IMG/VR virus record: IMGVR_UViG_3300029922_000049 | Length of the DNA stretch: 20,000 nucleotides | Source: an uncultured virus (IMG/VR IMGVR_UViG_3300029922_000049) | Taxonomy: Duplodnaviria > Heunggongvirae > Uroviricota > Caudoviricetes | Strand: one strand, 5' to 3' | In this document: piece by piece, positions 2,207 through 19,999 of the stretch | Layout: the number at the start of each line of letters is the position of its first letter | Numbering within the stretch: position 1 is the first letter of the stretch | Notes under the pieces: generated by a model | What the model was told of the DNA's origin: nothing | The model's database searches: none | The model's input: the letters and a program-made list of their open reading frames with translations, nothing else | Program-made: the position numbers and the translations under genes

Positions 2207-2605
2207 TTATTTTAAACAAATTGATTTAAAATCTTCTAGTATTTTATCCAATATTTCACTTTCATGAATCTCATCATATATTTCTCCTGTTTCAAAATTA
2301 TATGGAATTGCATACACATCAAATTCACCATCTACAATAGAGTATATACAAACAAAATCATTATTAATGTCTATTGATTCAGGAAAATCTAATGACATAA
2401 ATACTTTTTTTGCACCTTCATTAAAATATTTTTTAGCTCTATTATAACAAGATTCAACATCTCCTCCCAATGCTAATGCATTCATTTCAAATTTACCATC
2501 ACTGGTTTCTACAAATAATTGAAATGGATAATGTCCATAACATTCTTCACCGTCCATCAACTCAATTTTAACTAATTGTTCTACAAATTCTTTTACGTTT
2601 TTCAT
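2207..2605 (-). CDS. Hypothetical acidic protein
   Basis: 132-aa ORF overlapping the upstream stop; protein-like composition. Confidence 0.65.
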   Translation of the reverse strand: MKNVKEFVEQLVKIELMDGEECYGHYPFQLFVETSDGKFEMNALALGGDVESCYNRAKKYFNEGAKKVFMSLDFPESIDINNDFVCIYSIVDGEFDVYAIPYNFETGEIYDEIHESEILDKILEDFKSICLK

Positions 2606-3105
2606 ATTTTATTATTTTTTATGTTATACTCAAGTTCTTCTAATTTATTTTTTCTTAATAATATGGTAATATTTAAAATTTCATTGTTATATGTATTTGT
2701 ATATCTTGATTTTAATACTCTTAAATTATTTGATACTATTGATATTATTAATGATGTCATAAATGATAATGTATAATTAAAATTAAAATTATGCTTACTA
2801 TTAGAGTATTTACTTAAAAATATTATAATACAACTAGAATTAAGAAATAAATTTAATTTTACATTATTTTTTGGAACAAAAATACTATCAAAAAAAATTA
2901 TTGTTTTTTCATTAATATTTTTTATGAAATTATTTAATTTTTCGATATCTGATAAATATTCTGTGCCTATTATTATTCTATATCCAAATTTAATAAAATC
3001 TTTTTTGATCATTATTAAAAAAGATTTACTGATAGAATCCATAATTAACTCAATATAACTTCCTTTAGATTGTTCTATTGCATTTAATATATCTTCATAA
3101 CTCAT
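2602..3105 (-). CDS. Hypothetical protein, possibly a degenerate RecA/DnaB-fold fragment, with C-terminal RxxKLxxL motif
   Basis: IIFFDSI, IIIFLS and LRVLKSRY echo DnaB-type C-terminal motifs but there is no Walker A; tail RKNKLEEL. Confidence 0.5.
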   Translation of the reverse strand: MSYEDILNAIEQSKGSYIELIMDSISKSFLIMIKKDFIKFGYRIIIGTEYLSDIEKLNNFIKNINEKTIIFFDSIFVPKNNVKLNLFLNSSCIIIFLSKYSNSKHNFNFNYTLSFMTSLIISIVSNNLRVLKSRYTNTYNNEILNITILLRKNKLEELEYNIKNNKI

Positions 3106-3200
3106 AATAATTATTTTATAATTTTAATTTAGATTATATTTTTTGATATAAGTCAGGAGAGTTGTAAAAAATATAGAAAATTATATAAATATTTATAATT

Positions 3201-4652
3201 TTATAATTTTTCACGGAGTATTAAATAATAATCTTTTTTGTAAGGATTATTATTTAATGCTTGGATAAGCCTCTCATTATCCGTCCATACCTTACTGTCA
3301 ATAAAATCATTGATCAAAAGGGTTCTTTTCTTATTCCTGTCATTAACTGTGTAAAACAATTTTTCGCCGAAACGTTCTTCGAAATTATATAATGTTTTAC
3401 CTGCATTAACATCAGCATTTATTTTTTTACCACAGCAAAGACATTCAAATTCTTTCTGTGATTTTCTATTATTTTTGTCTATATATCCACATTTACTACA
3501 AGTCTGGCTTGAGTAAGCTGCATCAATAAATTTAATTTTAACTCCGTAATCTATTTTTAATTGATTAAGTTTACTCTTGATAATACTTAATCCAAATCTA
3601 TGGAGTAAACGATTATTCTTTTTGCCAATGTTACTACCTTTAAAATCTAAATCTTCCATGATTAAGGTTTCTGGTTTATATTTTTTATAAATTTTATTAA
3701 ATATCCGATTGATCTCGTTTTTACTGAAATCTCTAATCATATTAACTAATTTATTATATTCACTAAACTCAGATAACTTTACATACTTACCATGAATTTC
3801 TTTCAAATGATTAGTTAATATCATTAATTGATCATCTAATTTCTTTAACTTTTTCAAGTACCATTTACCGTAGGTTTCTCCATTATTTGTTGCTAACAGA
3901 ATATTTAATCCAATGTCAAACGATAATTTAACTTTACTTAATTCTGGTTTAATAATATCTAATTCTTTAGTTATCAATACACTATTGAATTTATGATCTT
4001 TGAATATTAATGTACAAGAAGTATTAAGTTTACCTTCAAATTTGTCAGCGTATTTATTATTTAGTAAAGGAATGTAATAAAATTTACCTTTGATATTTTT
4101 TTTTCCTGATGATAATTTAATTACATATTTTATATTAGAATTTAAGCCAGTTGGTGTTTCAATGACGGCAATTTTATACTGAAGTACCATGTTAATATTT
4201 TTGCATGATGGTAATTTACCAAAGAAGTTCTTGAATATCCAACGACCAAGTTTAATTGTTTCGTAATTTACCTTGTGATTTTTACCATGAATGTCTTCAT
4301 TAATGAAAAATAAATTCCTTTTATTTACTAAACATAAATCTTTCTTTATTTCGTTACTTAAGTTACTTGATAGTACAATCTTGTTGAATTTACGCTTGAA
4401 ATTACTGACTTTAGATTTAAACAATCCAACTACTTGTCTATTTATTGCATCTTTATAACGTTCAGTTAGAAATGTATAAACGTCTTTGTAGAGCGAGTTA
4501 TCAATACAAATTGAATTATATTTATAGTAATGATTCATATGTTTATTTATTAACACTTCAGCTACTCTACGCCACTCTGGATATAATTTATCCTGAATGT
4601 GTTTTGTTTTAATATCATTTGCGTTGGTGATAAATTTATAAGATTTGATCAT
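3201..4652 (-). CDS. tnpB: TnpB-family RNA-guided nuclease (IS200/IS605/IS607 superfamily), with no adjacent tnpA
   Basis: RuvC-I SFDIGLN, RuvC-II LIMEDL, Zn ribbon SQTCSKCG...FECLCCG, RuvC-III NADVNAG; all three acidic residues present. ATG at 4652 (MIKSYKF) is preferred over the TTG at 4661. Confidence 0.9.
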   Translation of the reverse strand: MIKSYKFITNANDIKTKHIQDKLYPEWRRVAEVLINKHMNHYYKYNSICIDNSLYKDVYTFLTERYKDAINRQVVGLFKSKVSNFKRKFNKIVLSSNLSNEIKKDLCLVNKRNLFFINEDIHGKNHKVNYETIKLGRWIFKNFFGKLPSCKNINMVLQYKIAVIETPTGLNSNIKYVIKLSSGKKNIKGKFYYIPLLNNKYADKFEGKLNTSCTLIFKDHKFNSVLITKELDIIKPELSKVKLSFDIGLNILLATNNGETYGKWYLKKLKKLDDQLMILTNHLKEIHGKYVKLSEFSEYNKLVNMIRDFSKNEINRIFNKIYKKYKPETLIMEDLDFKGSNIGKKNNRLLHRFGLSIIKSKLNQLKIDYGVKIKFIDAAYSSQTCSKCGYIDKNNRKSQKEFECLCCGKKINADVNAGKTLYNFEERFGEKLFYTVNDRNKKRTLLINDFIDSKVWTDNERLIQALNNNPYKKDYYLILREKL

Positions 4653-4667
4653 TAAATTCAATAATTA

Positions 4668-4699
4668 TTTGGTTTAATCAAAATATATTTGTATCTTTG
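4668..4699 (+). promoter_or_regulatory. Bacteroidota-type promoter pointing away from tnpB
   Basis: Plus strand TTTG(4668)-N20-TATCTTTG(4692-4699). Confidence 0.7.
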
Positions 4700-4702
4700 T
4701 AC

Positions 4703-4730
4703 TATATATAAATAATATAAAATAAAGTTT
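4703..4730 (-). promoter_or_regulatory. Putative phage-type promoter for tnpB
   Basis: Minus strand AAACTT-N16-TATATA; same boxes and spacing as 7080-7107. Confidence 0.5.
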
Positions 4731-4792
4731 AATATAATATTTTTCTATATTATTGATTAAAATTCTATAATATCATTGATAGATTATAAGAC

Positions 4793-5317
4793 TTATATTT
4801 TTTTAATGTTGTCTATTTTATCAAGTTTAATTTTTCTTACTGCTTTTATTGTATCACTATAAGATAGATTGTTTTTATGTTCAGACCATATTCTATTTTT
4901 AATTCTATCGTCTGAATTATCATAACAAGATTTACAAATTGTTGATATCCATCCTTTTGTAAATCCAATATTTTCAGTTGATCCACAAAATTCACAAGTA
5001 TTTGCAGACATATTTTCAGCAAATCTTACCATACCATCTATTTGTTCATCGCCTCCATTAAAATAGAAACTTAAAGTTCCAAATTTTTCTTTAACTTGAG
5101 TTGCAACAACTTGAGAGATTTTTTTATCATCAGATCTATATTCGTTATTATTATCTATATAATTTTGAATAGAATAACATAACTGATCTAATATCCAAAA
5201 CCAACCATCACCATGTTCAAATCCCCAACACATTGCAGTCTTAGTCATACCTTCATAACGATCTATGAAAATTTTTGGATATTTTTTAACTAAATAGTTA
5301 TCTAATTTTTCAGTCAT
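4793..5317 (-). CDS. Conserved phage hypothetical protein with a CxxC...CxxC Zn finger and C-terminal RxxKLxxI motif
   Basis: GDGW...QVKEKFGTLSFY...CEFCG...GWISTICKSC pattern recalled from phage proteins; tail RKIKLDKI. Confidence 0.7.
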   Translation of the reverse strand: MTEKLDNYLVKKYPKIFIDRYEGMTKTAMCWGFEHGDGWFWILDQLCYSIQNYIDNNNEYRSDDKKISQVVATQVKEKFGTLSFYFNGGDEQIDGMVRFAENMSANTCEFCGSTENIGFTKGWISTICKSCYDNSDDRIKNRIWSEHKNNLSYSDTIKAVRKIKLDKIDNIKKI

Positions 5318-5324
5318 AATAATT

Positions 5325-6074
5325 TTATTTATCTAATACATATTTATCATAATAATCATTAAATCCATCCATCATAGTGGTAATTGAATTTGAATTATCA
5401 TCTTTTAATCCAATAATAGTATCGATCAAACCATATTGTACTGCTTGATCTGAATTTAACCATTTATCTCTTTGACAAAAATTGTGGATTTCTTCAAACG
5501 GCTTTCCAGTATTTTGAGAAAGAATCTTGAATAATAAAAAATTATATTTTTCAGTCTCCATTTGACTAATACGAGTGTCATCTACTTTACCACTAGTTCC
5601 AGCAGCAACATGATGTAACATAACGGTAGCATTAATTAGTGATGAACGTTTACCTTTTTCACCAGAAGAAAGTAGAACAGACCCCATTGACGCGCACATT
5701 GCTAAATTGACTGTAGACACATCAGACTTAATCCAGTTCATTACATCAATGATACCAAGTCCTTGTATAACTGACCCGCCTGGACTTGAAATTTGCATTG
5801 TAATATCCTTTCCAGGTTCTGCATTATCCAAATATAACAATTGTGCTTGAATAATATCTGACATAACATCATCTACTTCTCCAGAGACCCATAAAATTCT
5901 ATCTAAAAGCAATCTATCAAACACAGATAATTGTGTAACATTTAATTTTCTTTCTTCTAATATCATAGGGGTTAGTCCATAATTCTTAATTTGATATTTT
6001 ATTGCATTATCTACCACTGTTGAATTCATACGTAAATGCTTAGTAGCGTAGTTTTTGAAATCGTTTTTCTGCAT
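5325..6074 (-). CDS. clpP: ATP-dependent Clp protease proteolytic subunit
   Basis: FDRLLLDRI, AQLLYL, ISSPGGSV, catalytic Ser in CASMG, His in MLHH, Asp in QRDKW, YGLID. Confidence 0.95.
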   Translation of the reverse strand: MQKNDFKNYATKHLRMNSTVVDNAIKYQIKNYGLTPMILEERKLNVTQLSVFDRLLLDRILWVSGEVDDVMSDIIQAQLLYLDNAEPGKDITMQISSPGGSVIQGLGIIDVMNWIKSDVSTVNLAMCASMGSVLLSSGEKGKRSSLINATVMLHHVAAGTSGKVDDTRISQMETEKYNFLLFKILSQNTGKPFEEIHNFCQRDKWLNSDQAVQYGLIDTIIGLKDDNSNSITTMMDGFNDYYDKYVLDK

Positions 6075-6111
6075 AATTTAATATTTTAGTTATTATTTAA
6101 TTGATTAGATA

Positions 6112-6142
6112 CAAAGATAAGGAAAGTTTTTGAATTACCAAA
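6112..6142 (-). promoter_or_regulatory. Bacteroidota-type promoter for clpP
   Basis: Minus strand TTTG-N19-TATCTTTG. Confidence 0.8.
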
Positions 6143-6161
6143 GGAAACTCAATATTTTTTA

Positions 6162-6219
6162 AATAAACCTATAATTATCAAGTAAATTGTATAATGCACT
6201 TGATAATTATAGGTTTATT
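6162..6219. terminator. Long perfect hairpin (22-bp stem, 14-nt loop)
   Basis: AATAAACCTATAATTATCAAGT (6162-6183) / ACTTGATAATTATAGGTTTATT (6198-6219), just downstream of 6235..6576. Confidence 0.7.
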
Positions 6220-6234
6220 ATAATGATTTTTTAA

Positions 6235-6576
6235 TTAGGCTTCTGTTGTTTCATCTTCAGATTCAACTTCTGTTCCTTCTTCTTCATCATTAAGTTGTGA
6301 TAGCATAACATCTTTCAATTTCTGCATTCTTTCGTCTGAGAAAAGAGATTTTACTTTTTCATCATCAATTGGATATGAAATTTCATTATCCAACACATGA
6401 TAAAGATAATCAATAGCTAAATCTTGATCAGCTTTTTCACAAAGGAAATCAATTAATGCTAATTTGTCAGTTTCACTAAGATCAAAAATTTTAATTTCTT
6501 TAACCTCATTAAGAAATTCTTTTTGATTTTCAGTTGTTGGATCAGTTAATTCTGATAATTTTTCTGTAATGTTCAT
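6235..6576 (-). CDS. Hypothetical highly acidic protein
   Basis: 113-aa ORF, D/E rich. Confidence 0.7.
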   Translation of the reverse strand: MNITEKLSELTDPTTENQKEFLNEVKEIKIFDLSETDKLALIDFLCEKADQDLAIDYLYHVLDNEISYPIDDEKVKSLFSDERMQKLKDVMLSQLNDEEEGTEVESEDETTEA

Positions 6577-6618
6577 AATTTTTTATTTATAATTTTTTAT
6601 TGTTTAATATATTTTTAA

Positions 6619-6855
6619 TTAATATCCTTCTTCTTCGTCGTCTTCTTTATATGAATTATTGATATCTTCATCATCATTAAGATCTTGTACATCAGATACT
6701 ACAGTTTCTACAATTTCTATATCATCATACACTAATGTATTATCCTGCATAATACTTTCTGAAAGTTCTTGTGCATATTGTTCTACTCTTTCATAATCAG
6801 CGTCTTCCGATTCAATTGAAAGAGTCATTTGAATTTTATATTCCTTTTTTTTCAT
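6619..6855 (-). CDS. Hypothetical highly acidic protein
   Basis: 78-aa ORF, D/E rich, co-oriented in the operon. Confidence 0.7.
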   Translation of the reverse strand: MKKKEYKIQMTLSIESEDADYERVEQYAQELSESIMQDNTLVYDDIEIVETVVSDVQDLNDDEDINNSYKEDDEEEGY

Positions 6856-6865
6856 ATTTTATTTT

Positions 6866-7063
6866 TTATTTTTTATCTTCTTTTACTTCGATTTTTAATA
6901 TTCTATGTGATGGTATAAATAAGAAATCTTTATCAAATTGTTGCCATACTCCATTATTTCCTATTCCTGTCACATTTTGCCTTAATGTGTATTCATTTTC
7001 ATACTCAGTAGGTATTGTTATTTCTGTTTCATCATCAAGATAAACTATTATATTATAATTCAT
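6866..7063 (-). CDS. Hypothetical protein
   Basis: 65-aa ORF directly downstream of a promoter-like motif. Confidence 0.65.
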   Translation of the reverse strand: MNYNIIVYLDDETEITIPTEYENEYTLRQNVTGIGNNGVWQQFDKDFLFIPSHRILKIEVKEDKK

Positions 7064-7079
7064 AAATTTAATTTTTTCT

Positions 7080-7107
7080 TATATACTAAAAGAAAAACAA
7101 TAAGTTT
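7080..7107 (-). promoter_or_regulatory. Putative phage-type promoter
   Basis: Minus strand AAACTT-N16-TATATA, 17 bp upstream of the ATG at 7063. Confidence 0.5.
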
Positions 7108-7122
7108 ATAATAAGTTTATAA

Positions 7123-7200
7123 TAAGTAGTCTTCTATCTCTGATAGCGGGGGTGCACCCTCCAAATATGTATATCTTAACCTGAATCGGCAGACTTCTTA
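7123..7200. ncRNA. Candidate small structured RNA in a GC-rich intergenic island
   Basis: Closing stem TAAG.AGTCT / AGACT.CTTA with inner hairpins CTATC-TCT-GATAG and GGGTGCACCC; GC far above the surroundings; family not recognised. Confidence 0.35.
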
Positions 7201-7503
7201 TTATAAACTAGATTTATTTTCTAAATATTTAACATATTGATATAGTATTACATTTTCTTTAATTGATTCATCTATTATTTCAAATAAAATATCAATTTCT
7301 GAATTTAGCCAATTAATTGGCTCTTCTTTCCATTCATCTGGTATAATACCAATAGGAGTAGAAGATACAAACATTTTTATTTTTTGCTTTGCATCATTAA
7401 TAACATTAATATTCTCATCAATTTTATTTCTTACATCTTCAATAGCCTCAAAAGACATTCTATTAAGATATACATTTGCTGTAAAATCTGTTCCCCAACC
7501 CAT
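7201..7503 (-). CDS. Hypothetical protein
   Basis: 100-aa ORF behind tandem promoters. Confidence 0.7.
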   Translation of the reverse strand: MGWGTDFTANVYLNRMSFEAIEDVRNKIDENINVINDAKQKIKMFVSSTPIGIIPDEWKEEPINWLNSEIDILFEIIDESIKENVILYQYVKYLENKSSL

Positions 7504-7508
7504 AATTA

Positions 7509-7622
7509 TATTTTTATATCAACAAAGATAATATATTTATTTCTAATTACCAAATTAATTGTTCAATATTTTTGTTTATTTTTATATCAACAAAGATAAT
7601 ATATTTATTTATACCTACCAAA
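7509..7622 (-). promoter_or_regulatory. Tandemly duplicated Bacteroidota-type promoter (34-bp exact direct repeat, 68-bp period)
   Basis: TATTTTTATATCAACAAAGATAATATATTTATTT at 7509-7542 and 7577-7610; each copy gives TTTG-N20-TATCTTTG on the minus strand. Confidence 0.8.
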
Positions 7623-7623
7623 T

Positions 7624-7815
7624 TTATTTCTCAAAATCTTCCTTTATTTTATATCCCCGTTTTTCCATATCACTCTTTATGAGATTTTCAATATATTTTG
7701 AACGACTTAAATCATTCTCTTTTATATAATCTTGTAAAATAACATCCAAATCTCTATTTAATGTTATGCTTATTTTAGGCTTCTTAATATCTTCTGATAA
7801 TTTGTGTCTCGACAT
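7624..7815 (-). CDS. Ribbon-helix-helix (CopG/Arc-like) DNA-binding protein
   Basis: KISITLNRDLDVILQDY...LSRSKYIENLIKSD strand-helix-helix pattern. Confidence 0.75.
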   Translation of the reverse strand: MSRHKLSEDIKKPKISITLNRDLDVILQDYIKENDLSRSKYIENLIKSDMEKRGYKIKEDFEK

Positions 7816-7917
7816 AGTTTTTATTTATAATATAAAAATATTTTAAAATAGTTTGTTAAATCACTAAAAAATCATTTTTATGACCTTAATATATTTATAT
7901 ATAGAATAAAAAATATC

Positions 7918-8076: not shown

Positions 8077-8078
8077 AT

Positions 8079-9434
8079 ATGAAGAAACCAAATGGATATT
8101 GGACATATGAAAAATGTAAAGAAGCTGCGTTAGAATGTAATACTAAAGAAGAACTAAGAAAAAAATATGGAACAGCATATAACTTGATTTATAAAAATAA
8201 ATGGATAGAATTGGCGAAACATTTTATTGATATTAGAAAAATTAACGGATACTGTACTACTTATGAGAAATGTAAAACAGAGTTAGCCAAATATAAAAAA
8301 CTCGCAGAATTTAAAAACAAATGGATATATAAAGTTATTTTAAATAATAAATGGAACGATTTACTTGAAGACTTTTATACTATAAAAATTGGTGGATGGT
8401 CTTATGATGAATGTAAAAATATTGCATCTAATTATTCAAATAGAACAGAATTAAGTAAAAACCATTCGGCTGTATATAGGAAAATTTTTAAAAATAATTG
8501 GAACGAATTATTAAATCATATGCCAAATGCAAAAATATGGACGTATGATAAATGTGTAGAAGAATCACTAAAATATGAATATAAATATGATTTAAAAAAA
8601 TATTCTTCAAGTGCATACACATCAATACTTAAAAATAAATGGTACGATATTCTTAATAATATGAAATGTAAGATTAAAAATGAATGGACATATGATGAGT
8701 GCAAAAAATATTCTAAAAAATTTAAAACTTTAAAAGATTTCAATAAGAAATATCCTGGAGCAGTTGATGCTATATATAGGCATAGTTGGTTAGATATAAT
8801 TGAAAAATTGAGAGAACAAAAACCACCCAATTATTGGACATATGATAAATGTAAAGATGTTGCACTAAAATATGACAATTTAAAAGATTTCAGAAAAGAT
8901 AATGGTGGCGCTTATTATAGAATAAATAATAATGGCTGGAGTGAATTATTAGAACATATGAAAAAAATGCCAAATTTTTATAAAAGAGCATTGTATGTTT
9001 ATGAATTTTCCGATAATACTTGTTATGTTGGATTGACATGTGATTTAAATAGACGACACTATCAACATTTAAATGATGATAAAGATTCTATTTATAAATA
9101 TATAAAGAATACAAATATTCAACCTAATTTTATAATAAAAAGTGATTATTTAGATGTTAAAGATGCTGTAAAAATGGAAGAAATTATCTTAAATGAATAT
9201 AAAACTAACAATTGGAAAGCTTTAAATAAAAACAAAACAGGTTCAATAGGCGGAATAATACTTTATTGGACATATGATAAATGTTTAGAAGAAATCAGGA
9301 AATATAAAACTCACGGTGATTTTAGAAAAAATGCTCCTGGTGCATATAACTCAGCCTATAAAAAAGGTTGGTTATATGAACTATTGGAGAATAATATAAA
9401 AGATTATGTGAAAAAAAGTAAAAAATCATTATAA
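8079..9434 (+). CDS. GIY-YIG (homing-type) endonuclease with seven ~48-aa W-T-Y-x-x-C helical repeats
   Basis: LYVYEF...YVGLT...RRHYQH...E...N GIY-YIG core; six repeats before it and one after. Confidence 0.8.
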   Translation: MKKPNGYWTYEKCKEAALECNTKEELRKKYGTAYNLIYKNKWIELAKHFIDIRKINGYCTTYEKCKTELAKYKKLAEFKNKWIYKVILNNKWNDLLEDFYTIKIGGWSYDECKNIASNYSNRTELSKNHSAVYRKIFKNNWNELLNHMPNAKIWTYDKCVEESLKYEYKYDLKKYSSSAYTSILKNKWYDILNNMKCKIKNEWTYDECKKYSKKFKTLKDFNKKYPGAVDAIYRHSWLDIIEKLREQKPPNYWTYDKCKDVALKYDNLKDFRKDNGGAYYRINNNGWSELLEHMKKMPNFYKRALYVYEFSDNTCYVGLTCDLNRRHYQHLNDDKDSIYKYIKNTNIQPNFIIKSDYLDVKDAVKMEEIILNEYKTNNWKALNKNKTGSIGGIILYWTYDKCLEEIRKYKTHGDFRKNAPGAYNSAYKKGWLYELLENNIKDYVKKSKKSL

Positions 9435-11327: not shown

Positions 11328-11358
11328 ATTTTTATATTTTTATGTTGTTTATAGAATA

Positions 11359-11408: not shown

Positions 11409-11424
11409 ATGAAAATATTATTTT

Positions 11425-12195
11425 TTAACTTTTAGAATTAGATATCATAAAAAATTCTGGAAAATCTAATGATTTTTCCAAACTCATAAATTTATCTATT
11501 GCACCAGGTGAAATTTCTTTAACGTAATTTGAAAATTTGTTAGTAGAATCTTGTATAGCTTGATTTTTTGTTTTCATTGTTGGAGTAAAATAAAATTCAT
11601 CTTTAAATGCTTGAGACATTAATCCAATAAAATAGCAGCAATCTAAATAATTTTCTATTTGATCAGTTGATTCAAATTTGAATAGTTGATTATATTTTTG
11701 AATATTTGTAAGCATAATATTTTTATAATTCTCATCTAATACACTATCTATTATATATTTAACTGCTGAACGAATTGTATTAGGTTCATGTCCTCTTGTT
11801 GTTATAATAGAGAATAATCTACCTTCTTTTAGAGTTGTTAAAAATGATTCCCATGATGGTCCAAAATTTTTATTATTTATTGCTTTTTTAATATCATAGA
11901 CAAGTGCGTTATCTACTCTTGTCCCATTATCACTAAATTCAGAAAATGTATATTTAGTATCTGCTTTCCATTCATTGTTGTCAATATAGTTTGTCGGATA
12001 TTTAGAACGTATTTTAGAAAAATCTTGAATTGAGACATCTTTATTTGTCCATTTACCATTTTCAAAATGTTGAAAATGTAAAGGCGTATTCATAATAAGT
12101 AAATTATCATCAATATCAAATATTGAATATTTTGAATTTTCTATATTTTGTTGTTCTAAAATAAATGCATTCCAATCTTTAACTTTTTTACTCAT
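11425..12195 (-). CDS. HAD-superfamily-like protein
   Basis: Motif I FDIDDNL and motif II IITTRGH; no clear motif IV. Confidence 0.6.
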   Translation of the reverse strand: MSKKVKDWNAFILEQQNIENSKYSIFDIDDNLLIMNTPLHFQHFENGKWTNKDVSIQDFSKIRSKYPTNYIDNNEWKADTKYTFSEFSDNGTRVDNALVYDIKKAINNKNFGPSWESFLTTLKEGRLFSIITTRGHEPNTIRSAVKYIIDSVLDENYKNIMLTNIQKYNQLFKFESTDQIENYLDCCYFIGLMSQAFKDEFYFTPTMKTKNQAIQDSTNKFSNYVKEISPGAIDKFMSLEKSLDFPEFFMISNSKS

Positions 12196-12509
12196 TATAA
12201 ATTAAATTTTTTTACTGAGTCATATAATTCTGGATCTTTCATATATTTAATCATATCATTATATTCTTCATCAGTTATATTAATTTTTCTAACGGAATAA
12301 TCTTTAGCTCTATAATTTATAATATATCCTCCTGATCTAAAATTATTTTTTGATATATCTTCAACTCTTGTTATAGAAATAGGACCATGTTTTTTTATAA
12401 ACTCATCATTAGTAGTTATATAATCATAAAAAACTTTCATCATATTAGTATAATAAATATCTGCTTGTAATTTCATGTGATAATATTCATCAAAACTATA
12501 TATTTTCAT
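12195..12509 (-). CDS. Hypothetical protein
   Basis: 104-aa ORF preceded by TTTTTATATATA; coupled to the HAD-like gene. Confidence 0.7.
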   Translation of the reverse strand: MKIYSFDEYYHMKLQADIYYTNMMKVFYDYITTNDEFIKKHGPISITRVEDISKNNFRSGGYIINYRAKDYSVRKINITDEEYNDMIKYMKDPELYDSVKKFNL

Positions 12510-12557
12510 TATAAATAAATTTTTATTTATTGGTATATATAAAAATAAAAATCCATC

Positions 12558-12821
12558 TTAAACAGATGGATTTTTAATATTATTTAACTTTTCTAATTTA
12601 TATTTTCTAAATTTTGAATATTCTATAAATCTTTGTTTTCTAAAAAGTGCATTAGGAAATTCCTTAAAATTAATTTCACCATAACTATTAATAGAATTAA
12701 AAGTATAGGTTTCTCCCATTTTTAATAATGAGATAGAACCGCCTAATTCTATACTAGAATATCGTGAATAATTATCAATGCAAATCATTTTAGTACCATA
12801 TTTATAGTCTTTATATTTCAT
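12558..12821 (-). CDS. Small SH3/KOW-like beta protein with RxxKLxxL tail
   Basis: GTKMICIDN...LLKMGETYTF; tail RKYKLEKL; close paralogue of 12811..13062. Confidence 0.7.
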   Translation of the reverse strand: MKYKDYKYGTKMICIDNYSRYSSIELGGSISLLKMGETYTFNSINSYGEINFKEFPNALFRKQRFIEYSKFRKYKLEKLNNIKNPSV

Positions 12822-13062
12822 TTAATTTTTCTAATTTATATTTTCTTAATTCTGAAATTTTTATAAATCTATTATTATTGAATAAATGGTGAGATATTTC
12901 ATTAAGTCCCAATTCTTCATTAGTGTAATAACCACTACTAACAGTATACACTTTACCTATTTCTAATAATTTTATATTACTTAATTTTGTATCTGGTGAA
13001 TATAATGTGAAATTATCTATACAAACTATTTTTTCACCTATTTTATAATTTTTAGATTTCAT
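12811..13062 (-). CDS. Small SH3/KOW-like beta protein with RxxKLxxL tail
   Basis: GEKIVCIDN...LLEIGKVYTV; tail RKYKLEKL. Confidence 0.7.
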   Translation of the reverse strand: MKSKNYKIGEKIVCIDNFTLYSPDTKLSNIKLLEIGKVYTVSSGYYTNEELGLNEISHHLFNNNRFIKISELRKYKLEKLNEI

Positions 13063-13065
13063 ATT

Positions 13066-13266: not shown

Positions 13267-13309
13267 AATTTTTTTGCAAATATACAATAATATCTTGATA
13301 TAAAAAATA

Positions 13310-13368
13310 TTTTGTTCAAAATAATATTAACTTCATTGACAATGAACATCATATTTAATTGAACAAAA
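13310..13368. terminator. Imperfect long hairpin
   Basis: TTTTGTTCAA / TTGAACAAAA outer stem with inner TTCATTG-A-CAATGAA; downstream of the interrupted gene. Confidence 0.5.
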
Positions 13369-13386
13369 AATATACATCAAATCAAA

Positions 13387-14191
13387 TTATTTATTTTTTA
13401 TATCAATTATAGTATCAAATAATTTATTAAATTTAGATTTTAAATCATTTAAATCTTTTTCATATTCATTCATTTCATCTATAACAGCATCAATATCGCA
13501 AAAGTAATAGTTATTATTATCTTCTGTTTTAGAACTATCTATATCTGCTTTATATAATGGAAAATATAATCCAGTACCGTCAACTTAAACTTATACAAAT
13601 TTGTACTTGCTGTGACGTTTGAATTTCGTTTGATGAAATTCTTTATCCGAACACACTATTCTCTATAGTTTAAAGAAATCGTAGTCGCTTTTAATTATTT
13701 AAACTACATAACGAACAACCATTTTTAAGAATTATTATAGTCCGTTGTTAAGATGTATTTAAAAGTGTATTAATCGTTTTATGTTTACTGTAATCAATAT
13801 TATTGATATGTATAAAGATTAAAAGTTTCAGTTTGATTTTTAATCAAACTTATTACTTTTATGATTTTACGTTAGTTAAGTTTTTAACTAACAACCATTT
13901 TATCATGACATCAAAGAACTATTTGTTTAATTATATTTAATAGTATAATATTTTAAAAAAGTTTATTTTATTTACACTTTTTTATATTTTTATTTAAATT
14001 TTTTGTAACGGAATCTTTACCTTCAAAATCTTTATCATTTGCTAATCTCTCAACATAATAATAAATAACAATTGCATAACCTATGTTATCAAATCCTTCA
14101 CATTTTGTTTCAATAAAACTAGTTATATTTTTTTAACATATTTTAAAATATATATTGGATCACCTACCAATAAATCTGTCCATTTTTTCAT
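13387..14191 (-). pseudogene. Interrupted gene (~124 aa when reconstructed), split by an insertion and by a frameshift in an A7 run
   Basis: MKKWTDLLVGDPIYILKYVKK [A7 at 14128-14134] NITSFIETK...DFEGKDS [insertion] GTGLYFPLYKAD...DIKNK*; the 3' part is a 65-codon open frame with no start at its 5' end. Confidence 0.7.
13577..14011 (-). mobile_element. Non-coding structured insertion; candidate non-autonomous IS607-like/omegaRNA element
   Basis: Ends CCGTTAC...GTTGACGG; CG repeated at both junctions; several perfect hairpins; internal promoter-like and boxA-like motifs; no ORF of 60 aa or more. Confidence 0.6.
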
Positions 14192-14204
14192 AATATTGTT
14201 ATTT

Positions 14205-14447: not shown

Positions 14448-14474
14448 TTAATATTTATTTTTTTTTATAAAAAC

Positions 14475-14657
14475 TTAACAATTCCAAATTATACCAATTG
14501 CATCGTCAGTTTCCCATCCTGTTCCTTCTTCTATCGTCAAATCACTAATCATCATCACTGCACTATCATCAAAAAGTGGTCCAATTTCAATATCATCAAT
14601 ATTAGGATATATTACTCTTAATTCTTCTATTTTTTCTATTAATTCTTTTACTAACAT
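14475..14657 (-). CDS. Hypothetical protein
   Basis: 60-aa ORF with an MxVKELIEK start typical of small phage proteins. Confidence 0.6.
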   Translation of the reverse strand: MLVKELIEKIEELRVIYPNIDDIEIGPLFDDSAVMMISDLTIEEGTGWETDDAIGIIWNC

Positions 14658-14881
14658 ATTTTTTCATTAATTTTATTTAATTTTAATTTTCTATATTGAT
14701 TATATGTTATGAATTTATTCATAGTATAACTACAAACTATATAACATAAATTTTTATAATTATCAAGATAACTCACATTTGTTATAATATCTTTGTGTAT
14801 ATTAATAATAGTATATGTTTTATATTTATCGAAAATACAAATATCGTTACTCATATAAGTAATTTTATCACCTTTCTTCAT
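14651..14881 (-). CDS. Small SH3/KOW-like protein with RxxKLxxI tail
   Basis: MKKGDKI...KYKTYTI; tail RKLKLNKI. Confidence 0.65.
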   Translation of the reverse strand: MKKGDKITYMSNDICIFDKYKTYTIINIHKDIITNVSYLDNYKNLCYIVCSYTMNKFITYNQYRKLKLNKINEKIC

Positions 14882-15245
14882 ATTTAACAGAATTTATATA
14901 TTTCAGTTTTTTTAATCTATTAATTTGAATAAATGGTTCAGGAAAAGTTATTTCAATCTTATCATATAATTCTTTTAGTTTTTCAACTGGATAATGATCA
15001 AATTTTGGATCAAAAGCATAATTAACACAAGCAAATTCATTGAAAGAATGTGAAAAATTACCATATTCCTGTACAAAAAAATAATAAAAATTTTTATGAA
15101 AATTTTTTCCTTCTATTGTATCTGGAGGATAAGAATATTTTCTGTTCCGCCAATTACAAATAATTCCATGTTTAATCCTGAACAATTTATTTAATTCTTC
15201 ATATTTTAGTTTTCTTTTTCTTTCTTTCTTTTTCCTATTAAACAT
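14868..15245 (-). CDS. Hypothetical protein with RxxKLxxI tail
   Basis: 125-aa ORF; tail RLKKLKYI. Confidence 0.65.
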   Translation of the reverse strand: MFNRKKKERKRKLKYEELNKLFRIKHGIICNWRNRKYSYPPDTIEGKNFHKNFYYFFVQEYGNFSHSFNEFACVNYAFDPKFDHYPVEKLKELYDKIEITFPEPFIQINRLKKLKYINSVKYEER

Positions 15246-15246
15246 A

Positions 15247-15618: not shown

Positions 15619-15624
15619 TATATT

Positions 15625-16059
15625 TTATATTATTAATTTACCGTTAATATGATCAAATTGATGTTGAATTGCGATGGCATTTAAATCTTTAAATGTAGAT
15701 AATTTATAATTCCAATTAATATCATAATATTTAATATGAACTATTGATCTTCTATTAATTGGAAATTCTAAATTAGGAAAGCTTAAGCATTTTTCTTTAT
15801 TTTGTATAAGAAATCCATCAAGTTTTATTTCTGGATTTATAAATACTTCTTTTAAATCAGGATTATTAATTACAAATAAATTTAAATTGTGTCCAACTTG
15901 TGGCGCAGATAATCCAAATTCAAAATTATGATAATTAATAGTTTCAAACATATCTTTAATCAAAGAAATTAAAAAAGGATTTTCTTTTTTTACGTCTACA
16001 TTTATTTTTCGTAATTTACCTGAGTTAGAATCATCATATTTGATTATATCTAAAATCAT
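15625..16059 (-). CDS. def: Peptide deformylase homologue with a substituted active site
   Basis: GLSAPQVG, VFINP, EKCLSFP, QHQFDHING (canonical GxGxAAxQ, EGCLS, HExDH). Confidence 0.85.
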   Translation of the reverse strand: MILDIIKYDDSNSGKLRKINVDVKKENPFLISLIKDMFETINYHNFEFGLSAPQVGHNLNLFVINNPDLKEVFINPEIKLDGFLIQNKEKCLSFPNLEFPINRRSIVHIKYYDINWNYKLSTFKDLNAIAIQHQFDHINGKLII

Positions 16060-16277
16060 TTATTTTTCTTTTTTTCTTTCTTTTTTTCTTTATTTTCAGC
16101 TTTTTCTATTTTCTTTTCTTCTAATTTCTCTGAAACTCCTGATTTGAAAAAATCTTTATATTCTTTTTTCGAACAATATTTCCATCCTTGTTCAATATAA
16201 GATTTTATACTAACAACTTCATTAATACTTCCATCAGGTAATTTTTTAAAAGTGTCATTTTTTCTTAATATCTTCAT
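16056..16277 (-). CDS. Hypothetical basic protein
   Basis: 73-aa ORF with GWKYCSK and a Lys/Glu tail. Confidence 0.65.
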   Translation of the reverse strand: MKILRKNDTFKKLPDGSINEVVSIKSYIEQGWKYCSKKEYKDFFKSGVSEKLEEKKIEKAENKEKKKEKKKNK

Positions 16278-16300
16278 ATACTATTTTATTTTTATTATTG

Positions 16301-16558
16301 TTATAATAGATTTAATCTAATTAGTTTTTCTTTTCTTTGAAATTTTTTAAATTTATTAATAGTTAAAAATTGACTACTTAATGGTTTAATATCTTGATGC
16401 TTTATATCAGAGTTAACATATATATGTTCTAATTTAGTTATTTTTCCAATATAAACATATAAGACTTTATATGTTTTTCCAATTGTTAAATATCTTTCAT
16501 ATCCATTATCATTTAAAATGCAGATAACGTTATCATCTATTGAATATTTATATTGCAT
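16301..16558 (-). CDS. Small SH3/KOW-like protein with RxxKLxxL tail
   Basis: DDNVICILN...LTIGKTYKV; tail RKEKLIRL. Confidence 0.7.
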   Translation of the reverse strand: MQYKYSIDDNVICILNDNGYERYLTIGKTYKVLYVYIGKITKLEHIYVNSDIKHQDIKPLSSQFLTINKFKKFQRKEKLIRLNLL

Positions 16559-16812
16559 AATTTATTAAGTTTTTTTAACTTATCAAGTCTTTGTTTTTTA
16601 TTAAAATCATTGAGTGATAAAAACAAATCACAAAATACAGTTAATGTATAACTATTACTATTTGATTGAATAATAACTTGATATTTATTAATATTAGTAT
16701 TACAATGAATTCCAATAATTTTATATGATCTTCCAATAGTTAATATATTTGGATAACTACTATTATTTATACATACTATTTCATCACCTTGATTCCAACC
16801 GTTATTATTCAT
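16537..16812 (-). CDS. Small SH3/KOW-like protein with RxxKLxxL tail
   Basis: GDEIVCINN...LTIGRSYKI; tail RLDKLKKL. Confidence 0.7.
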   Translation of the reverse strand: MNNNGWNQGDEIVCINNSSYPNILTIGRSYKIIGIHCNTNINKYQVIIQSNSNSYTLTVFCDLFLSLNDFNKKQRLDKLKKLNKLCNINIQ

Positions 16813-17062
16813 TCCAACCTAATTTATTAAGTTTTTCTATCCGTTTTTCTCTTAATCTCTGTATCTTCCATTCTCTTGATTCAGTAATAATTGATGTTGT
16901 TGTAGACATTATATAAGGAACAAATATATAACCTTGCTCTAATAATCCAGTTGAACCAGAAATAATGTCATTTGTATTATAACTTGATGAAAGTGTATTA
17001 TAATAACTTGATGATATTGTAGTTATACTATATCTTGATTTTACTGTTTTAATTGAATTCAA
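16805..17062 (-). CDS. Ser/Thr-rich protein with a GYIFVPYI motif and RxxKLxxL tail
   Basis: 85-aa ORF; tail RIEKLNKL. Confidence 0.6.
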   Translation of the reverse strand: MNSIKTVKSRYSITTISSSYYNTLSSSYNTNDIISGSTGLLEQGYIFVPYIMSTTTSIITESREWKIQRLREKRIEKLNKLGWNE

Positions 17063-17499
17063 TCTCTATACATTAATTTTTTATTGTAGTATATACTACT
17101 ACATGTACCTTGACCATATGTCAAAGCAAATTGCCAACCGTTATATTCACAGATATCAGACGGAAAATGACTTGTAAAATCATCAATAGATTCTGTTATT
17201 TCAGTTCCTTCTTTTTCTGCTAAATCAAACAATGAGTATAATAGTTGAGTTGGATATGGTGTACAACCATTTTTGTAACATTTGTCCCTCCATTCTTCTC
17301 CATTTTTGCTTATTATTCTATTGACTAAAGAATCAAAAGTTTCTTGATCATTGAACATTTTTTTAATTCTTTCGATATTAATATTATTTTGATCATCTTC
17401 TAATTGTAATTTTTCTCGGAACTCACGAATACTTTCTTCACCCTCAGGAGTTTTTAAAAACTCTAAATATTCTTCTAATTTTTCTGTAACACTTGACAT
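17059..17499 (-). CDS. Hypothetical protein
   Basis: 146-aa ORF coupled to the next gene (ATGA overlap). Confidence 0.7.
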   Translation of the reverse strand: MSSVTEKLEEYLEFLKTPEGEESIREFREKLQLEDDQNNINIERIKKMFNDQETFDSLVNRIISKNGEEWRDKCYKNGCTPYPTQLLYSLFDLAEKEGTEITESIDDFTSHFPSDICEYNGWQFALTYGQGTCSSIYYNKKLMYRD

Positions 17500-17531
17500 A
17501 ATATTATATTTATTTATTTATTTATTTATTT

Positions 17532-17843
17532 TTATTCAAACCACAATCTAAAATGATTAGTAGTTTCTTCTGAAAACTCACTTGGATGTTTTGAAAAAAT
17601 TAACATCATTAGACTTTTATAGTCTGTTTTTTCTGTTGTTTCAATATATACAGTACAAGTATAATCTTTTTTTGACTCCATATCAAAAAGAATTTCTGAT
17701 ACTCCAAAATTAACAAGTAGTGTACAGAAAATTGCGGTATCTCTACTACTCCAATCAAGAATATTCATGGATGTAGTGTAATCAAACTCAACTAATTCTC
17801 CGTAATAATCTCCGTATTTTTCACTTTTATGTACTACTATCAT
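17532..17843 (-). CDS. Hypothetical protein
   Basis: 103-aa ORF ending RLWFE. Confidence 0.7.
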   Translation of the reverse strand: MIVVHKSEKYGDYYGELVEFDYTTSMNILDWSSRDTAIFCTLLVNFGVSEILFDMESKKDYTCTVYIETTEKTDYKSLMMLIFSKHPSEFSEETTNHFRLWFE

Positions 17844-17868
17844 AATATTATAATTTTTATTGTTTAAC

Positions 17869-18129
17869 TTATTCTATTATAGTTTCATTTATTTTATTTA
17901 ATTTTTCTTTTCTTAATATAATATTTGCTTTATTGTAATATTTTTCATAATAAAGTTTCCTGAAATAAAACCATTTTTGATTAGGTGGCTCATATTCCAT
18001 ATTTGACATATATAATTGAGAATCTTTGTAGTCATGTACATAATATTGTACAAATAGATAATATGCTATATCATCAAATATTGTAGAGTTTTTTAAATTC
18101 CAATATCCCCATCCTTTATCTATAATCAT
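17869..18129 (-). CDS. Tyr-rich hypothetical protein with RxxKLxxI tail
   Basis: Tail RKEKLNKI. Confidence 0.65.
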   Translation of the reverse strand: MIIDKGWGYWNLKNSTIFDDIAYYLFVQYYVHDYKDSQLYMSNMEYEPPNQKWFYFRKLYYEKYYNKANIILRKEKLNKINETIIE

Positions 18130-18519
18130 TTAAAATTCTACTGTATTTATCATTCTTAAATATAATGGTAATTTTTGATGTAATTCTTTTCTATATTGAG
18201 TAAATATATCATTTATATTTAAAAAATCTTTTTTATCAATTATTTTTACTAAATAATAGTTATATTTAATTGACCATTGTCCTAAAGTATTATCAATATA
18301 TGTATTATTTTTAGATATATTAATAAAATGAATAAAACATGAGTCATCATTTATACATATGCACATTCCTAATGTCGATTGATTGCTACTTAATGCATCA
18401 TTAACAGCATTCATTTGGCATCTAAAATTATATCTACATCTACCACTTTTTACGTTTATTTTTTTACCAGTACTAATAGCATAATTTTTAATAAGACTTG
18501 TTGATTTTTTATCTAGCAT
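18130..18519 (-). CDS. Hypothetical protein
   Basis: 129-aa ORF; CQMNA...HFIN...IDNT could be a Cys-His-Asp triad (unverified). Confidence 0.65.
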   Translation of the reverse strand: MLDKKSTSLIKNYAISTGKKINVKSGRCRYNFRCQMNAVNDALSSNQSTLGMCICINDDSCFIHFINISKNNTYIDNTLGQWSIKYNYYLVKIIDKKDFLNINDIFTQYRKELHQKLPLYLRMINTVEF

Positions 18520-18529
18520 AATATATTAT

Positions 18530-19090
18530 TTATAAATTATTTAAATCTTTCGGAATTGGTTTTAAATGCCAAAATCCGTTATCATCAATTGTAAAACTTT
18601 CTGGTTTCATAGGAGAATATCCCCAAGTACAGAAACCATTACATTCGATATTTTCACAAGTATTTGTAAACTTATTTTCTACTCCCCATTCTTGCCCGCA
18701 TAAAACACAAATTAATTTTTTATCTGATATATCATTTTCTTCGTTATCAATTTGTTTTAATTTATCTCTTCTCTCATATTTTATTGAATATATAAATCTT
18801 TTAATTGTGCACCATACTTTTTTATTGTTATCATTTAAAACTTTTATTTTACCAATATTATGATCTAATATATTATATGATTTACCAATAGTTAAATTAC
18901 ATCCTTTAATTGATGGATCATAATATCTTTTATTGTTTTCATTACAATACCGTTCAGTTTCAAAGCATATAACAGTTTTACCTATTATACAAAATTTATC
19001 TGTAAGTATGCATCTTTTTAATATTTTTCTTTTTTCAAATTGATCTTTTTCTAAAAAATCTTGACTATTTAACCACTGCTGAAGTATCAT
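18530..19090 (-). CDS. Fusion of an SH3/KOW-like domain, an internal RxxKLxxI motif and a Cys-rich Zn-finger domain
   Basis: GKTVICF...LTIGKSYNI, RRDKLKQI, then CVLCG...CENIEC. Confidence 0.65.
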   Translation of the reverse strand: MILQQWLNSQDFLEKDQFEKRKILKRCILTDKFCIIGKTVICFETERYCNENNKRYYDPSIKGCNLTIGKSYNILDHNIGKIKVLNDNNKKVWCTIKRFIYSIKYERRDKLKQIDNEENDISDKKLICVLCGQEWGVENKFTNTCENIECNGFCTWGYSPMKPESFTIDDNGFWHLKPIPKDLNNL

Positions 19091-19301
19091 ATAATTTCTT
19101 TAATTTTTCTTTTCTAAGATATTGATCATCTAATTTAGTATAATTATCAATTGATATCGTGCACCATTTCGTAATTTTTTTATTTGACCTGCATGTTAGA
19201 CAATATTCATATTCATTATTCAAAATACTTATAATTTCGATTTTAAAAATGTTTCCAACTACAATGTTTCCAACTACAATATCTCCTACTTTATATTTCA
19301 T
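19065..19301 (-). CDS. Small KOW-like protein with RxxKLxxL tail
   Basis: MKYKVGDIV; tail RKEKLKKL. Confidence 0.65.
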   Translation of the reverse strand: MKYKVGDIVVGNIVVGNIFKIEIISILNNEYEYCLTCRSNKKITKWCTISIDNYTKLDDQYLRKEKLKKLYDTSAVVK

Positions 19302-19503
19302 ATAATTTATTTAATTTTTCTTTTCTTAAATATTTAATATCTATTAGATATGAATTATAATCTAAATATTCAGAATCAATATAAGTGCGACGTGATTCTG
19401 TTAAATATACTACTACATAATACAATGAAATTTCACCAATTTCTATTATTTTTAATTTAATATCATTATTAAGCAATACAATATCATTAATTTTATATTT
19501 CAT
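19291..19503 (-). CDS. Small KOW-like protein with RxxKLxxL tail
   Basis: MKYKINDIV; tail RKEKLNKL. Confidence 0.65.
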   Translation of the reverse strand: MKYKINDIVLLNNDIKLKIIEIGEISLYYVVVYLTESRRTYIDSEYLDYNSYLIDIKYLRKEKLNKLYEI

Positions 19504-19999
19504 TTAATTGTTTCAATTTTAATGCTCTTATATCTTTTTTAGAAAAAATATTTAAATTTGTTTTATTAATGATATATGAAAATAATTTATTTTTCATCAA
19601 CACAGATCTATTATTAAGAGATACTGATTGTATGACTTTTTCAATATCAACTCTTTCTCCGTACTCTTCATTAATAAAAATATTATTATTATCAAAATCA
19701 TATTCTAATGTTATATATATGTCATATATTGGTTCTCCATACATATTATGTTTATCACTTTCTAAATAAACCCCTACAATTTTGTCAAATTCATTAGATA
19801 AATAACCTATATATTCTTGTAGAAGAACGTTTAAAAAATCATCTTCAGTATAATCTCCGATATGCCTACGTAAAAAATTTTCAATAAACCATTTTTCAGG
19901 ATCAACTCCCGTTTCAGATGCAATGTTATCTATTATTTTAAGTTGAAATTCAACTTTACTACTTATCCAATTGTTAAATATAGTTTCAAATGATTTCAT
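19493..19999 (-). CDS. Hypothetical protein with RxxKLxxL tail
   Basis: 168-aa ORF at the window edge; tail RALKLKQL. Confidence 0.65.
   Translation of the reverse strand: MKSFETIFNNWISSKVEFQLKIIDNIASETGVDPEKWFIENFLRRHIGDYTEDDFLNVLLQEYIGYLSNEFDKIVGVYLESDKHNMYGEPIYDIYITLEYDFDNNNIFINEEYGERVDIEKVIQSVSLNNRSVLMKNKLFSYIINKTNLNIFSKKDIRALKLKQLNEI

Follow-up and report, generated by a model that had tools for sequence, protein, structure and literature searches.

Shared terminal docking peptides are a known kind of element, and several of them come close to the element described here, a C-terminal R-x-x-K-L-x-x-[LI] motif (below, the tag) on proteins encoded by a 20,000-nucleotide stretch of DNA (the window) from the uncultured virus IMGVR_UViG_3300029922_000049 of IMG/VR. 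The recognition peptides of the Clp system, such as the ssrA tag, the basic C-motif of the MuA type and the ClpX-binding tail of SspB, are short and C-terminal; some are basic and hydrophobic, some stand behind flexible linkers, and they bring proteins to an AAA+ protease. Internal proteins of phage T4 carry an N-terminal capsid-targeting sequence (CTS), which is clipped at [LI]-x-E. Encapsulin cargo is routed to an HK97-type shell by C-terminal peptides behind linkers, and such loading peptides are also known for scaffolding proteins. The F-box-like ankyrin/PRANC adaptors of poxviruses bind Skp1 through PRANC, a folded domain of ~30 residues. The T4 proteins gp43, gp55 and gp33 share an interchangeable C-terminal epitope for binding to the sliding clamp, which is hydrophobic and acidic and is placed behind an unstructured, variable linker (PMC2988020).

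The tag is like the T4 epitope in being short, C-terminal and placed behind an unstructured, variable linker on proteins that are unrelated, and the replication genes of this phage also resemble those of T4. It is unlike the T4 epitope, which occurs on three proteins, in being attached to 11-24% of all open reading frames (ORFs), in being basic with an almost fixed lysine at position 4, and in being absent from the gp55-like protein. With Clp recognition peptides it shares the short length and the C-terminal position, and the phage encodes both an unfoldase and ClpP. However, Clp signals are found at the extreme C-terminus while the tag is followed by 1-12 residues, and the scale is different. 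Like the T4 CTS and the encapsulin peptides, the tag is a terminal peptide on unrelated small proteins, which by analogy might indicate a capsid role, but the CTS is N-terminal and clipped, while the tag is C-terminal and adjoins a cleavage-type site in only 6-15% of the cases. A second tag of the same phage, K-F-N-[LI]-stop, is reminiscent of the poxvirus ankyrin/PRANC proteins in that a constant element at the C-terminus comes after ankyrin repeats that vary; by analogy it could plug into one host or viral machine, as is known for PRANC. Here, however, the constant part is not a folded domain but consists of four residues at the carboxyl end, and it belongs to a bacterial virus. What is new is the sequence, the scale and the second companion tag. 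No published description of such megaphage tags was found by a full-text literature search, and the tag was not found by term look-up in passages of PMC7824862, PMC7162821 and PMC11165621. We consider the finding to be real, strong and apparently undescribed, while we infer the mechanism behind it.

Occurrence of the tag

The window forms the final 20 kb of a virus contig with a length of 72,617 bp (G+C 22.6%). In a simple, non-overlapping ORF set of this contig (n=160), R-x-x-K-L-x-x-[LI] occurs in 36 ORFs among the C-terminal 20 residues and in a single one at an internal position. Shuffling of whole proteins (n=2000) yields on average 0.12 tail matches with a maximum of 2, and when only the last 20 residues are shuffled (n=2000), which keeps their richness in lysine and leucine, the mean is 0.45 and the maximum is 4. 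Chance is excluded by this comparison with composition-matched shuffles. The motif is found in the first 20 residues of none of the 160 ORFs, and its reversed form occurs 4 times anywhere in them. A preliminary description of the window, made from its sequence alone, had listed 13 C-terminal motifs, 3-9 residues before the stop codon, and one internal copy. All of these were recovered when the coordinates were checked by translation, and so were the varying codons within the tag (AGA and CGG for arginine; TTA, CTT and TTG for leucine) and the lack of the tail in LigA, ClpP, the methyltransferase and TnpB. In the sequences analysed, recognised enzymes are never tagged.

A longer IMG/VR contig of 125,546 bp (G001) holds the identical stretch and represents the same phage. 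Because CheckV assigns it a completeness of 18%, the genome size is expected to be near 700 kb. ClpP from the window has its nearest match (53% identity) in LR745206, an uncultured phage of 634,780 bp, followed by Prevotella Lak megaphages (38%), and two window proteins have homologues on contigs of up to 711 kb. According to Al-Shayeb et al. (PMC7162821), the Mahaphage clade takes in all genomes above 634 kb together with the Lak phages and has predicted Bacteroidetes hosts. The 72.6-kb contig represents part of a megaphage of this Bacteroidetes type with a genome of roughly 700 kb. For comparison we used the relatives G002 (330 kb) and G003 (256 kb) and, further, LR745206 (complete; 971 ORFs) and Lak-C1 (540 kb, 653 ORFs). 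The sequence logo of the window clade (clade A) was made from G001 and G002.

The preliminary description had called the tag phage-wide; it proved to be clade-wide as well. The census was performed with the pattern R..K[LI]..[LI], located at most 20 residues from the stop codon in G001 and G002 and at most 12 residues in G003, LR745206 and Lak-C1. There are 53 matches in about 51 of the 234 ORFs of G001, while the tag is present on 95 of 602 ORFs in G002, 111 of 470 in G003 and 111 of 971 in LR745206, where shuffled tails give a mean of 3.5 and a maximum of 11 (n=200). Among the 653 ORFs of Lak-C1 there is a single match.

The core of the tag can be written as R1-x-x-K4-[LI]5-x-x-[LI]8. A hydrophobic residue usually stands before it, and in the window clade another 1-12 residues, which are free of constraint, come after it. 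Lysine is found at position 2 in 107 and at position 7 in 88 of the 146 tags in the clade A logo. When 299 near-terminal matches to arginine with hydrophobic residues (phi) at positions 5 and 8 (R...phi..phi) were collected from the window clade, position 4 was lysine in 258 of them, compared to 15% internally, while position 1 was counted as arginine in 255 and as lysine in 61. LR745206 has a variant, R-[DE]-x-K-[IL]-x-x-[IL], with aspartate (52), glutamate (24), asparagine (15) or lysine (9) as the main residues at position 2 (n=111). Position 9 is leucine or glycine in this phage, not asparagine as in the window clade, and mostly 1-4 residues follow the tag. R1, K4, phi5 and phi8 are thus retained while the remaining sequence is different. 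R1, K4, L5 and L8 would lie on one face of a helix, as expected for a short binding epitope.

Modularity and architecture of tagged proteins

When the tail is removed from 41 carriers (isoleucine being allowed at position 5), BLASTP sorts the remaining bodies into families of 10, 6, 3 and 2 members and 20 singletons. Alignment by eye places a few of the singletons in the beta-rich and Tyr-rich families, and judged by sequence comparison at least a dozen carrier bodies remain that appear unrelated. The earlier claim that many carriers are unrelated has thus been borne out by the four families and 20 singletons, while the designation of some of them as SH3-like is not proven: the model shows a small beta domain followed by a helix, and its mean predicted local distance difference test (pLDDT) score is only 69.6. 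Homology over the whole length does not connect all carriers, and the tag is found on proteins as distinct as the zinc-ribbon protein of the window and, in G002, behind a domain of the Thoeris inhibitor Tad3 (residues 2-125 of a 194-aa protein; E 3.3e-34) and behind DUF6794. For most carriers there is no assignment at all. Pfam lacks a match for 80 of 83 tagged G002 proteins (83 of the 95, leaving aside 11 from a single array and one whose gene is truncated at a locus border) and for all of the 33 larger tagged proteins of LR745206 that were analysed. None of 15 window carriers matched PHROG, where only 3 of 36 submitted proteins matched at all, and a search of the ESM Atlas returned nothing. 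Net charge and pI of the carrier bodies are only mildly acidic and thus uninformative.

The zinc-ribbon protein (4793..5317) allows us to follow gain or absence of the tail within one family. There are 997 detected homologues, 97 of which were aligned. Tails of the type RKIK[LI]DKL are present in 62 of these, 33-45 residues past the last CxxC, and one further homologue has the variant RKIRLDKL with arginine for lysine. In 34 of the 97 the tail is absent, and these proteins stop 5-32 residues after the last CxxC. The preliminary description had proposed to look for tail-less homologues of this protein, and they are common; the tail is a module on unrelated bodies. The linker sequence is variable among the 62 tailed orthologues, and tailed homologues occur on contigs of up to 711 kb.

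AlphaFold2 (AF2) models agree with the proposal, also made before, of a helical tail, which is predicted to stand behind a flexible linker. In the model of the zinc-ribbon protein, built on the family alignment (pLDDT 93.1), a confident body comprises residues 1-146, residues 150-153 score below 50, and the tag is located within a helix formed by residues 155-173. Foldseek finds no PDB match for the body of this model at E <= 0.001. The beta-rich paralogue (pLDDT 69.6) is predicted to have four strands and then a C-terminal helix, residues 69-82, which is the best-predicted part; for its body, the term SH3-like remains a guess.

Constraint on the peptide

Synonymous codon usage within the tag is largely neutral. 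On the contig, Leu5 is encoded by TTA in 25 of 36 cases, compared to a genome share of 0.666 (p 0.86), and for 146 tags the codons at K2, K4, L5, K7 and L8 match genome frequencies (p 0.06-1). A strict DNA pattern of the motif falls into frame 0 of an ORF on the same strand in 16 of 17 places. Both observations support the earlier view that the constraint acts on the peptide. In addition, the tag is kept in zinc-ribbon orthologues down to about 50% identity, and for 7 of 39 tagged genes the 35 nt downstream contain no start codon.

Two explanations at the nucleotide level were tried and rejected. An early promoter of giant viruses, AAAATTGA, might have been hidden in the codons for K-L, but Leu5 is mostly TTA, the relatives are phages and the contig has bacterial-type terminators. 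A fusion of array genes by frameshifting is incompatible with the +1 frame, which has a stop codon within the tag.

A second C-terminal tag

A feature that is not part of the preliminary description is a group of ORFs which end exactly with K-F-N-[LI]-stop. On the contig this ending is found in 11 of the 160 ORFs, in G001 in 20 of 234 and in G002 in 94 of 602, and the looser form [KN][FY]N[LIMV] matches 64 of 470 in G003. The second tag thus accounts for another 14-16% of the ORFs in two relatives; it was not found in LR745206 and Lak-C1. In the window it occurs directly before the stop codon of ORF 12195..12509 (K-F-N-L at 12198..12209, minus strand). The 72.6-kb contig also has an array of such genes on the plus strand (36686-40944 and 45996-48629), which begins right behind two AAA+ genes and a gene for a DUF2201 metallopeptidase/VWA protein.

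Of 103 carriers collected with the looser pattern, 48 were submitted to Pfam, and among these are 10 ankyrin-repeat proteins and one leucine-rich-repeat (LRR) protein. The 72.6-kb contig codes for two further ankyrin proteins that end in this way. The nucleotide sequence of the second tag is biased: the asparagine codon is AAC in 59 of 125 cases, compared to 12.4% in the genome (p 1.7e-21), and the last codon is ATA in 57 cases and ATT in 2, which also holds before TAA stops. The next gene is overlapped by a 4-nt ATGA in 64 of the 125. A similarity of its final residues to the end of the polymerase, ...I-F-Q-F, is a lead only.

Tagged genes and their neighbours in the window

The tagged genes of the window are all encoded on the minus strand. 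RKNKLEEL (2632..2655) belongs to ORF 2602..3105, which codes for 167 aa without a match in Pfam or PHROG and has the tag 9 residues before the stop codon. RKIKLDKI (4814..4837) is the tag of the zinc-ribbon protein, the gene of which is 8 nt downstream of clpP. RKYKLEKL is found in two beta-rich paralogues, at 12585..12608 in ORF 12558..12821, which is followed by a terminator-like hairpin and not by an overlapping gene, and at 12823..12846 in ORF 12811..13062, where the next ATG is 1 nt past the tag. Then follow RKLKLNKI (14669..14692; ORF 14651..14881) and RLKKLKYI (14895..14918) in ORF 14868..15245, which codes for 125 aa with a singleton body. A further run comprises RKEKLIRL (16313..16336; ORF 16301..16558), RLDKLKKL (16567..16590; ORF 16537..16812) and RIEKLNKL (16820..16843), the latter with a CGG arginine codon and in the Ser/Thr-rich ORF 16805..17062, another singleton. 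RKEKLNKI (17890..17913) is carried by a member of the Tyr-rich helical family (ORF 17869..18129). Near the end of the window are RKEKLKKL (19092..19115; ORF 19065..19301), RKEKLNKL (19303..19326; ORF 19291..19503) and RALKLKQL (19505..19528) in ORF 19493..19999 (168 aa), which has a singleton body. The internal copy, RRDKLKQI (18749..18772, also on the minus strand), occupies residues 107-114 of the 186-aa ORF 18530..19090, between a beta-rich and a Cys-rich domain. This ORF looks like a tagged gene that has been fused to its downstream neighbour.

The hairpin behind ORF 12558..12821 is G+C-poor and is followed by a T-run (12530..12560). About 800 nt without a convincing ORF (13290..14120) separate two minus-strand gene runs and contain several short inverted repeats. 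A scan of the window for tRNA genes and Rfam families gave 0 matches. A gene for TnpB (OrfB_IS605/Cas12f-like TNB; 3201..4661, minus strand) separates the tagged ORF 2602..3105 from that of the zinc-ribbon protein, and the same contig codes for an IS607-like pair of a serine recombinase and a TnpB (6129-7902, minus strand), so that mobile elements are present inside the phage. ORF 8079..9434 (plus strand) codes for a 451-aa protein with about seven repeats of ~55 residues (W-T-Y-[DE]-K-C...) arranged around a segment resembling GIY-YIG; Pfam gives no match for this protein, while similar proteins of G002 match DUF7487, DUF723 and DUF4379. Two large proteins encoded elsewhere on the contig (118-1392, plus strand; 41602-43446, minus strand) share their last ~25 residues (...DKMTIVDANA). 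One of them has a weak match to CBM_5_12 (E 4e-4, below the Pfam cut-off), and the pair may represent fibre-like proteins with a common C-terminal module.

Genes for protein quality control and replication

ClpP from the window (5325..6074, minus strand; Pfam CLP_protease E 2.4e-52, and NCBIfam ClpP models) is untagged and a candidate partner of the tag. The same phage codes for an 844-aa ClpA/ClpC-like unfoldase, which had not been noted before; its G-I-G-F loop is conserved without change in 17 of 17 relatives. This loop (IGF loop) is presumably the one with which ClpC-like unfoldases dock to ClpP. Together with DnaJ and DnaK, the unfoldase and the window ClpP represent a protein-quality-control set of the phage; the genes outside the window are located at L018:12607-15138 and L017:1802-2800 in G001 (both plus strand) and at L028:2871-4742 in G002 (minus strand).

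The family-B polymerase is split into a gene for the exonuclease/N-terminal part and a gene for the C-terminal part, about 90-100 kb apart in both clades that carry the tag (G002: 23642-25003, plus strand, and 111471-112952, minus strand; LR745206: 130568-131992 and 232803-234344). The C-terminal tails of the polymerase are ...KRLSVLNSIFQF and ...RRLSVVMDIFGGFK in the two clades and share R1, phi5 and phi8 of the tag, but not K4. A search for the clamp gene with PF02916 gave no match in the phage but also none in control genomes and is therefore uninformative. In LR745206 (189151-189649), a 121-aa gp55-like late sigma factor is followed by a separate tagged ORF of 53 aa in another frame and then by a terminator hairpin, and the relative P0166 reads through the gp55-like gene into a similar tagged stretch. 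A gp55 with a frameshifted, tagged C-terminus was considered and rejected, as the 120 listed relatives have, as a rule, the form with 121-124 aa. In the nine sequences that were read, the gp55-like protein is untagged in seven.

A proposed docking helix and its alternatives

We consider it probable that the tag is a docking helix, portable and C-terminal, which is recognised by one co-evolving receptor. Its enrichment, peptide-level constraint, modularity, helix-after-linker architecture and clade distribution are demonstrated; docking itself and the docking partner we infer. The tag, found in one group of megaphages (~630-710 kb) on hundreds of small accessory proteins, most of them orphans, and often attached by a flexible linker, would bring its carriers to one common receptor, and the receptor would co-evolve with it, as may be reflected by lysine at position 2 in the window clade and aspartate or glutamate in LR745206. 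Several observations weigh against this reading. Most carriers are members of tandem paralogue arrays, so that the counts represent non-independent events, and we know of no phage precedent for one receptor that serves 100-250 different ligands per genome. A long overlap with the following gene, of at least 8 nt, is far more common for tagged than for untagged genes, with 28 of 50 versus 11 of 182 cases in the first of three sets and 43 of 92 versus 44 of 508 and 29 of 110 versus 72 of 859 in the other two. In 23 of 39 tagged genes the next ATG is at most 8 nt from the tag. Finally, two codons at the edges of the 146 tags are biased, with AGA for Arg1 in 88% versus 76% in the genome (p 0.0005) and ATA for Ile8 in 71% versus 48% (p 0.0004). 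The stretch may thus have a minor role in translational coupling or expression of the downstream gene.

An overlap of at least 8 nt with the start of the following gene, as seen in half of the tagged genes, had not been noted before, and it leads to the proposal that the stretch works as a DNA or RNA signal for the overlapping gene (a translation initiation region, a coupling element or a recombination junction), with the peptide as a by-product. The strong excess of long overlaps fits this proposal, as do the excess of AGA and ATA at the tag edges, the clear nucleotide-level bias of the second tag and the position of the next ATG, which is 1, 4 or 7 nt past the tag in 20 of 39 genes, often inside an Asn-Glu/Asp codon pair. 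We nevertheless regard it as very unlikely, since synonymous usage is neutral at five conserved positions, the pattern is in frame, the tag is retained without a nearby gene start in the 7 genes mentioned and in zinc-ribbon orthologues of only ~50% identity, and R1, K4, phi5 and phi8 are kept in LR745206 while the rest differs. The next start codon is often inside the residues behind the tag, probably because these residues are free to vary and the start of the next gene has moved into the free tail. One reading of the arrays is that they grow by duplication and recombination at this conserved junction. Common descent would offer a different explanation, namely that a single small ancestral gene gave rise to all carriers, the helix being part of a common fold or serving self-association. 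The tandem paralogues would be accounted for, and in the Tyr-rich family the tag does extend a conserved helix. About 20 bodies are without detectable similarity, however, tail-less zinc-ribbon homologues are common, the tag also stands behind Tad3 and DUF6794 domains, and AF2 places a low-confidence linker between body and helix. Moreover, two hydrophobic core residues would be too few for a stable coiled coil. We thus consider descent from one gene as unlikely.

If the tag is a docking helix, the question is to what it docks. Proteins that are present in both tag-bearing clades but not in Lak-C1 include 51 untagged candidates, mostly unknown proteins, which are too many for the phyletic profile to name a receptor. 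The sliding clamp is a tentative candidate: the tag would be this clade's version of the T4-family epitope and would hang accessory proteins on the DNA-loaded phage clamp. The phage has a T4-like replication set (a gp32-like protein, UvsW, the family-B polymerase and the gp55-like protein), and the polymerase tail has the spacing of the tag, R-x3-[LV]-x2-I(-F), in both tag-bearing clades but is unrelated in the tagless Lak-C1. That the T4 epitope can be swapped between proteins and follows a variable linker (PMC2988020) also fits. However, the polymerase match was noticed after the fact, the tail has valine where the tag has lysine in 86%, and its aromatic end is not found in tags; a hydrophobic/acidic epitope contrasts with a basic tag, and the gp55-like protein of LR745206 carries no tag, its untagged form of 121-124 aa being found in most of the 120 relatives listed. 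About equally tentative is a function as degron or adaptor tether for the ClpC-like/ClpP machine, which might serve the timed removal of early proteins or the delivery of host targets. The preliminary description had already named a ClpP degron among its options, besides docking on one hub protein and import into a phage compartment or capsid. Unfoldase and ClpP are both encoded by the phage as a cognate pair, the tagged zinc-ribbon gene follows clpP at a distance of 8 nt, and a ClpC-like homologue exists in LR745206, which is tagged, while none was detected in the untagged Lak-C1. This co-occurrence comes from three lineages, however, and 50 other untagged proteins are distributed alike. In addition, the tag is not at the extreme C-terminus, with 1-12 residues after it (mostly 1-4 in LR745206). 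The LR745206 unfoldase lacks the Clp_N domain, which weakens docking on that domain; it cannot be the common mechanism. Both candidates are ranked ahead of the capsid, for which the tag would load small, for example anti-defence, proteins into the procapsid for co-injection, comparable to T4 internal proteins or encapsulin cargo. Small orphan carriers in paralogous arrays would suit such a role, as would a Tad3-type Thoeris inhibitor among them. We consider it improbable, as tagged genes are arranged in operon-like runs with genes for replication and nucleotide metabolism, and 100-250 different cargo proteins are hard to picture. A T4-type [LIV]-x-E directly precedes only 15% of 254 tags in clade A and 6% of 111 in LR745206; with a per-position background of 1.7% for this ending at -2, a T4-type protease site is not general. 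Within the overall probability of a docking helix, the clamp and the Clp machine take the larger and about equal shares, while the procapsid interior and another, unrecognised protein each take a smaller one.

Beyond the docking helix itself we put forward, as a speculation that we hold to be rather unlikely, a scheme of plug-in recruitment, in which hundreds of fast-evolving small binder domains, together with the ankyrin and LRR proteins of the second tag, are linked by the two constant tags to one or two phage machines, with the ClpC-like/ClpP protease and the sliding clamp as candidates. Such an evolvable adaptor repertoire would capture host proteins, for example those of defence systems, either for destruction or for being held at the phage DNA.

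If a common receptor exists, there would be one organising principle for a quarter to two fifths of the genes in the largest known phages. The search for the receptor of an 8-residue peptide would then provide a handle on proteins that are otherwise unannotated. Should the receptor be a protease or the clamp, bacterial viruses would practise targeted recruitment on a scale known only from eukaryotic hubs, and the tag could serve as a portable tool. Whatever the receptor, the tag is a simple sequence marker of this megaphage group and of its accessory gene pool.

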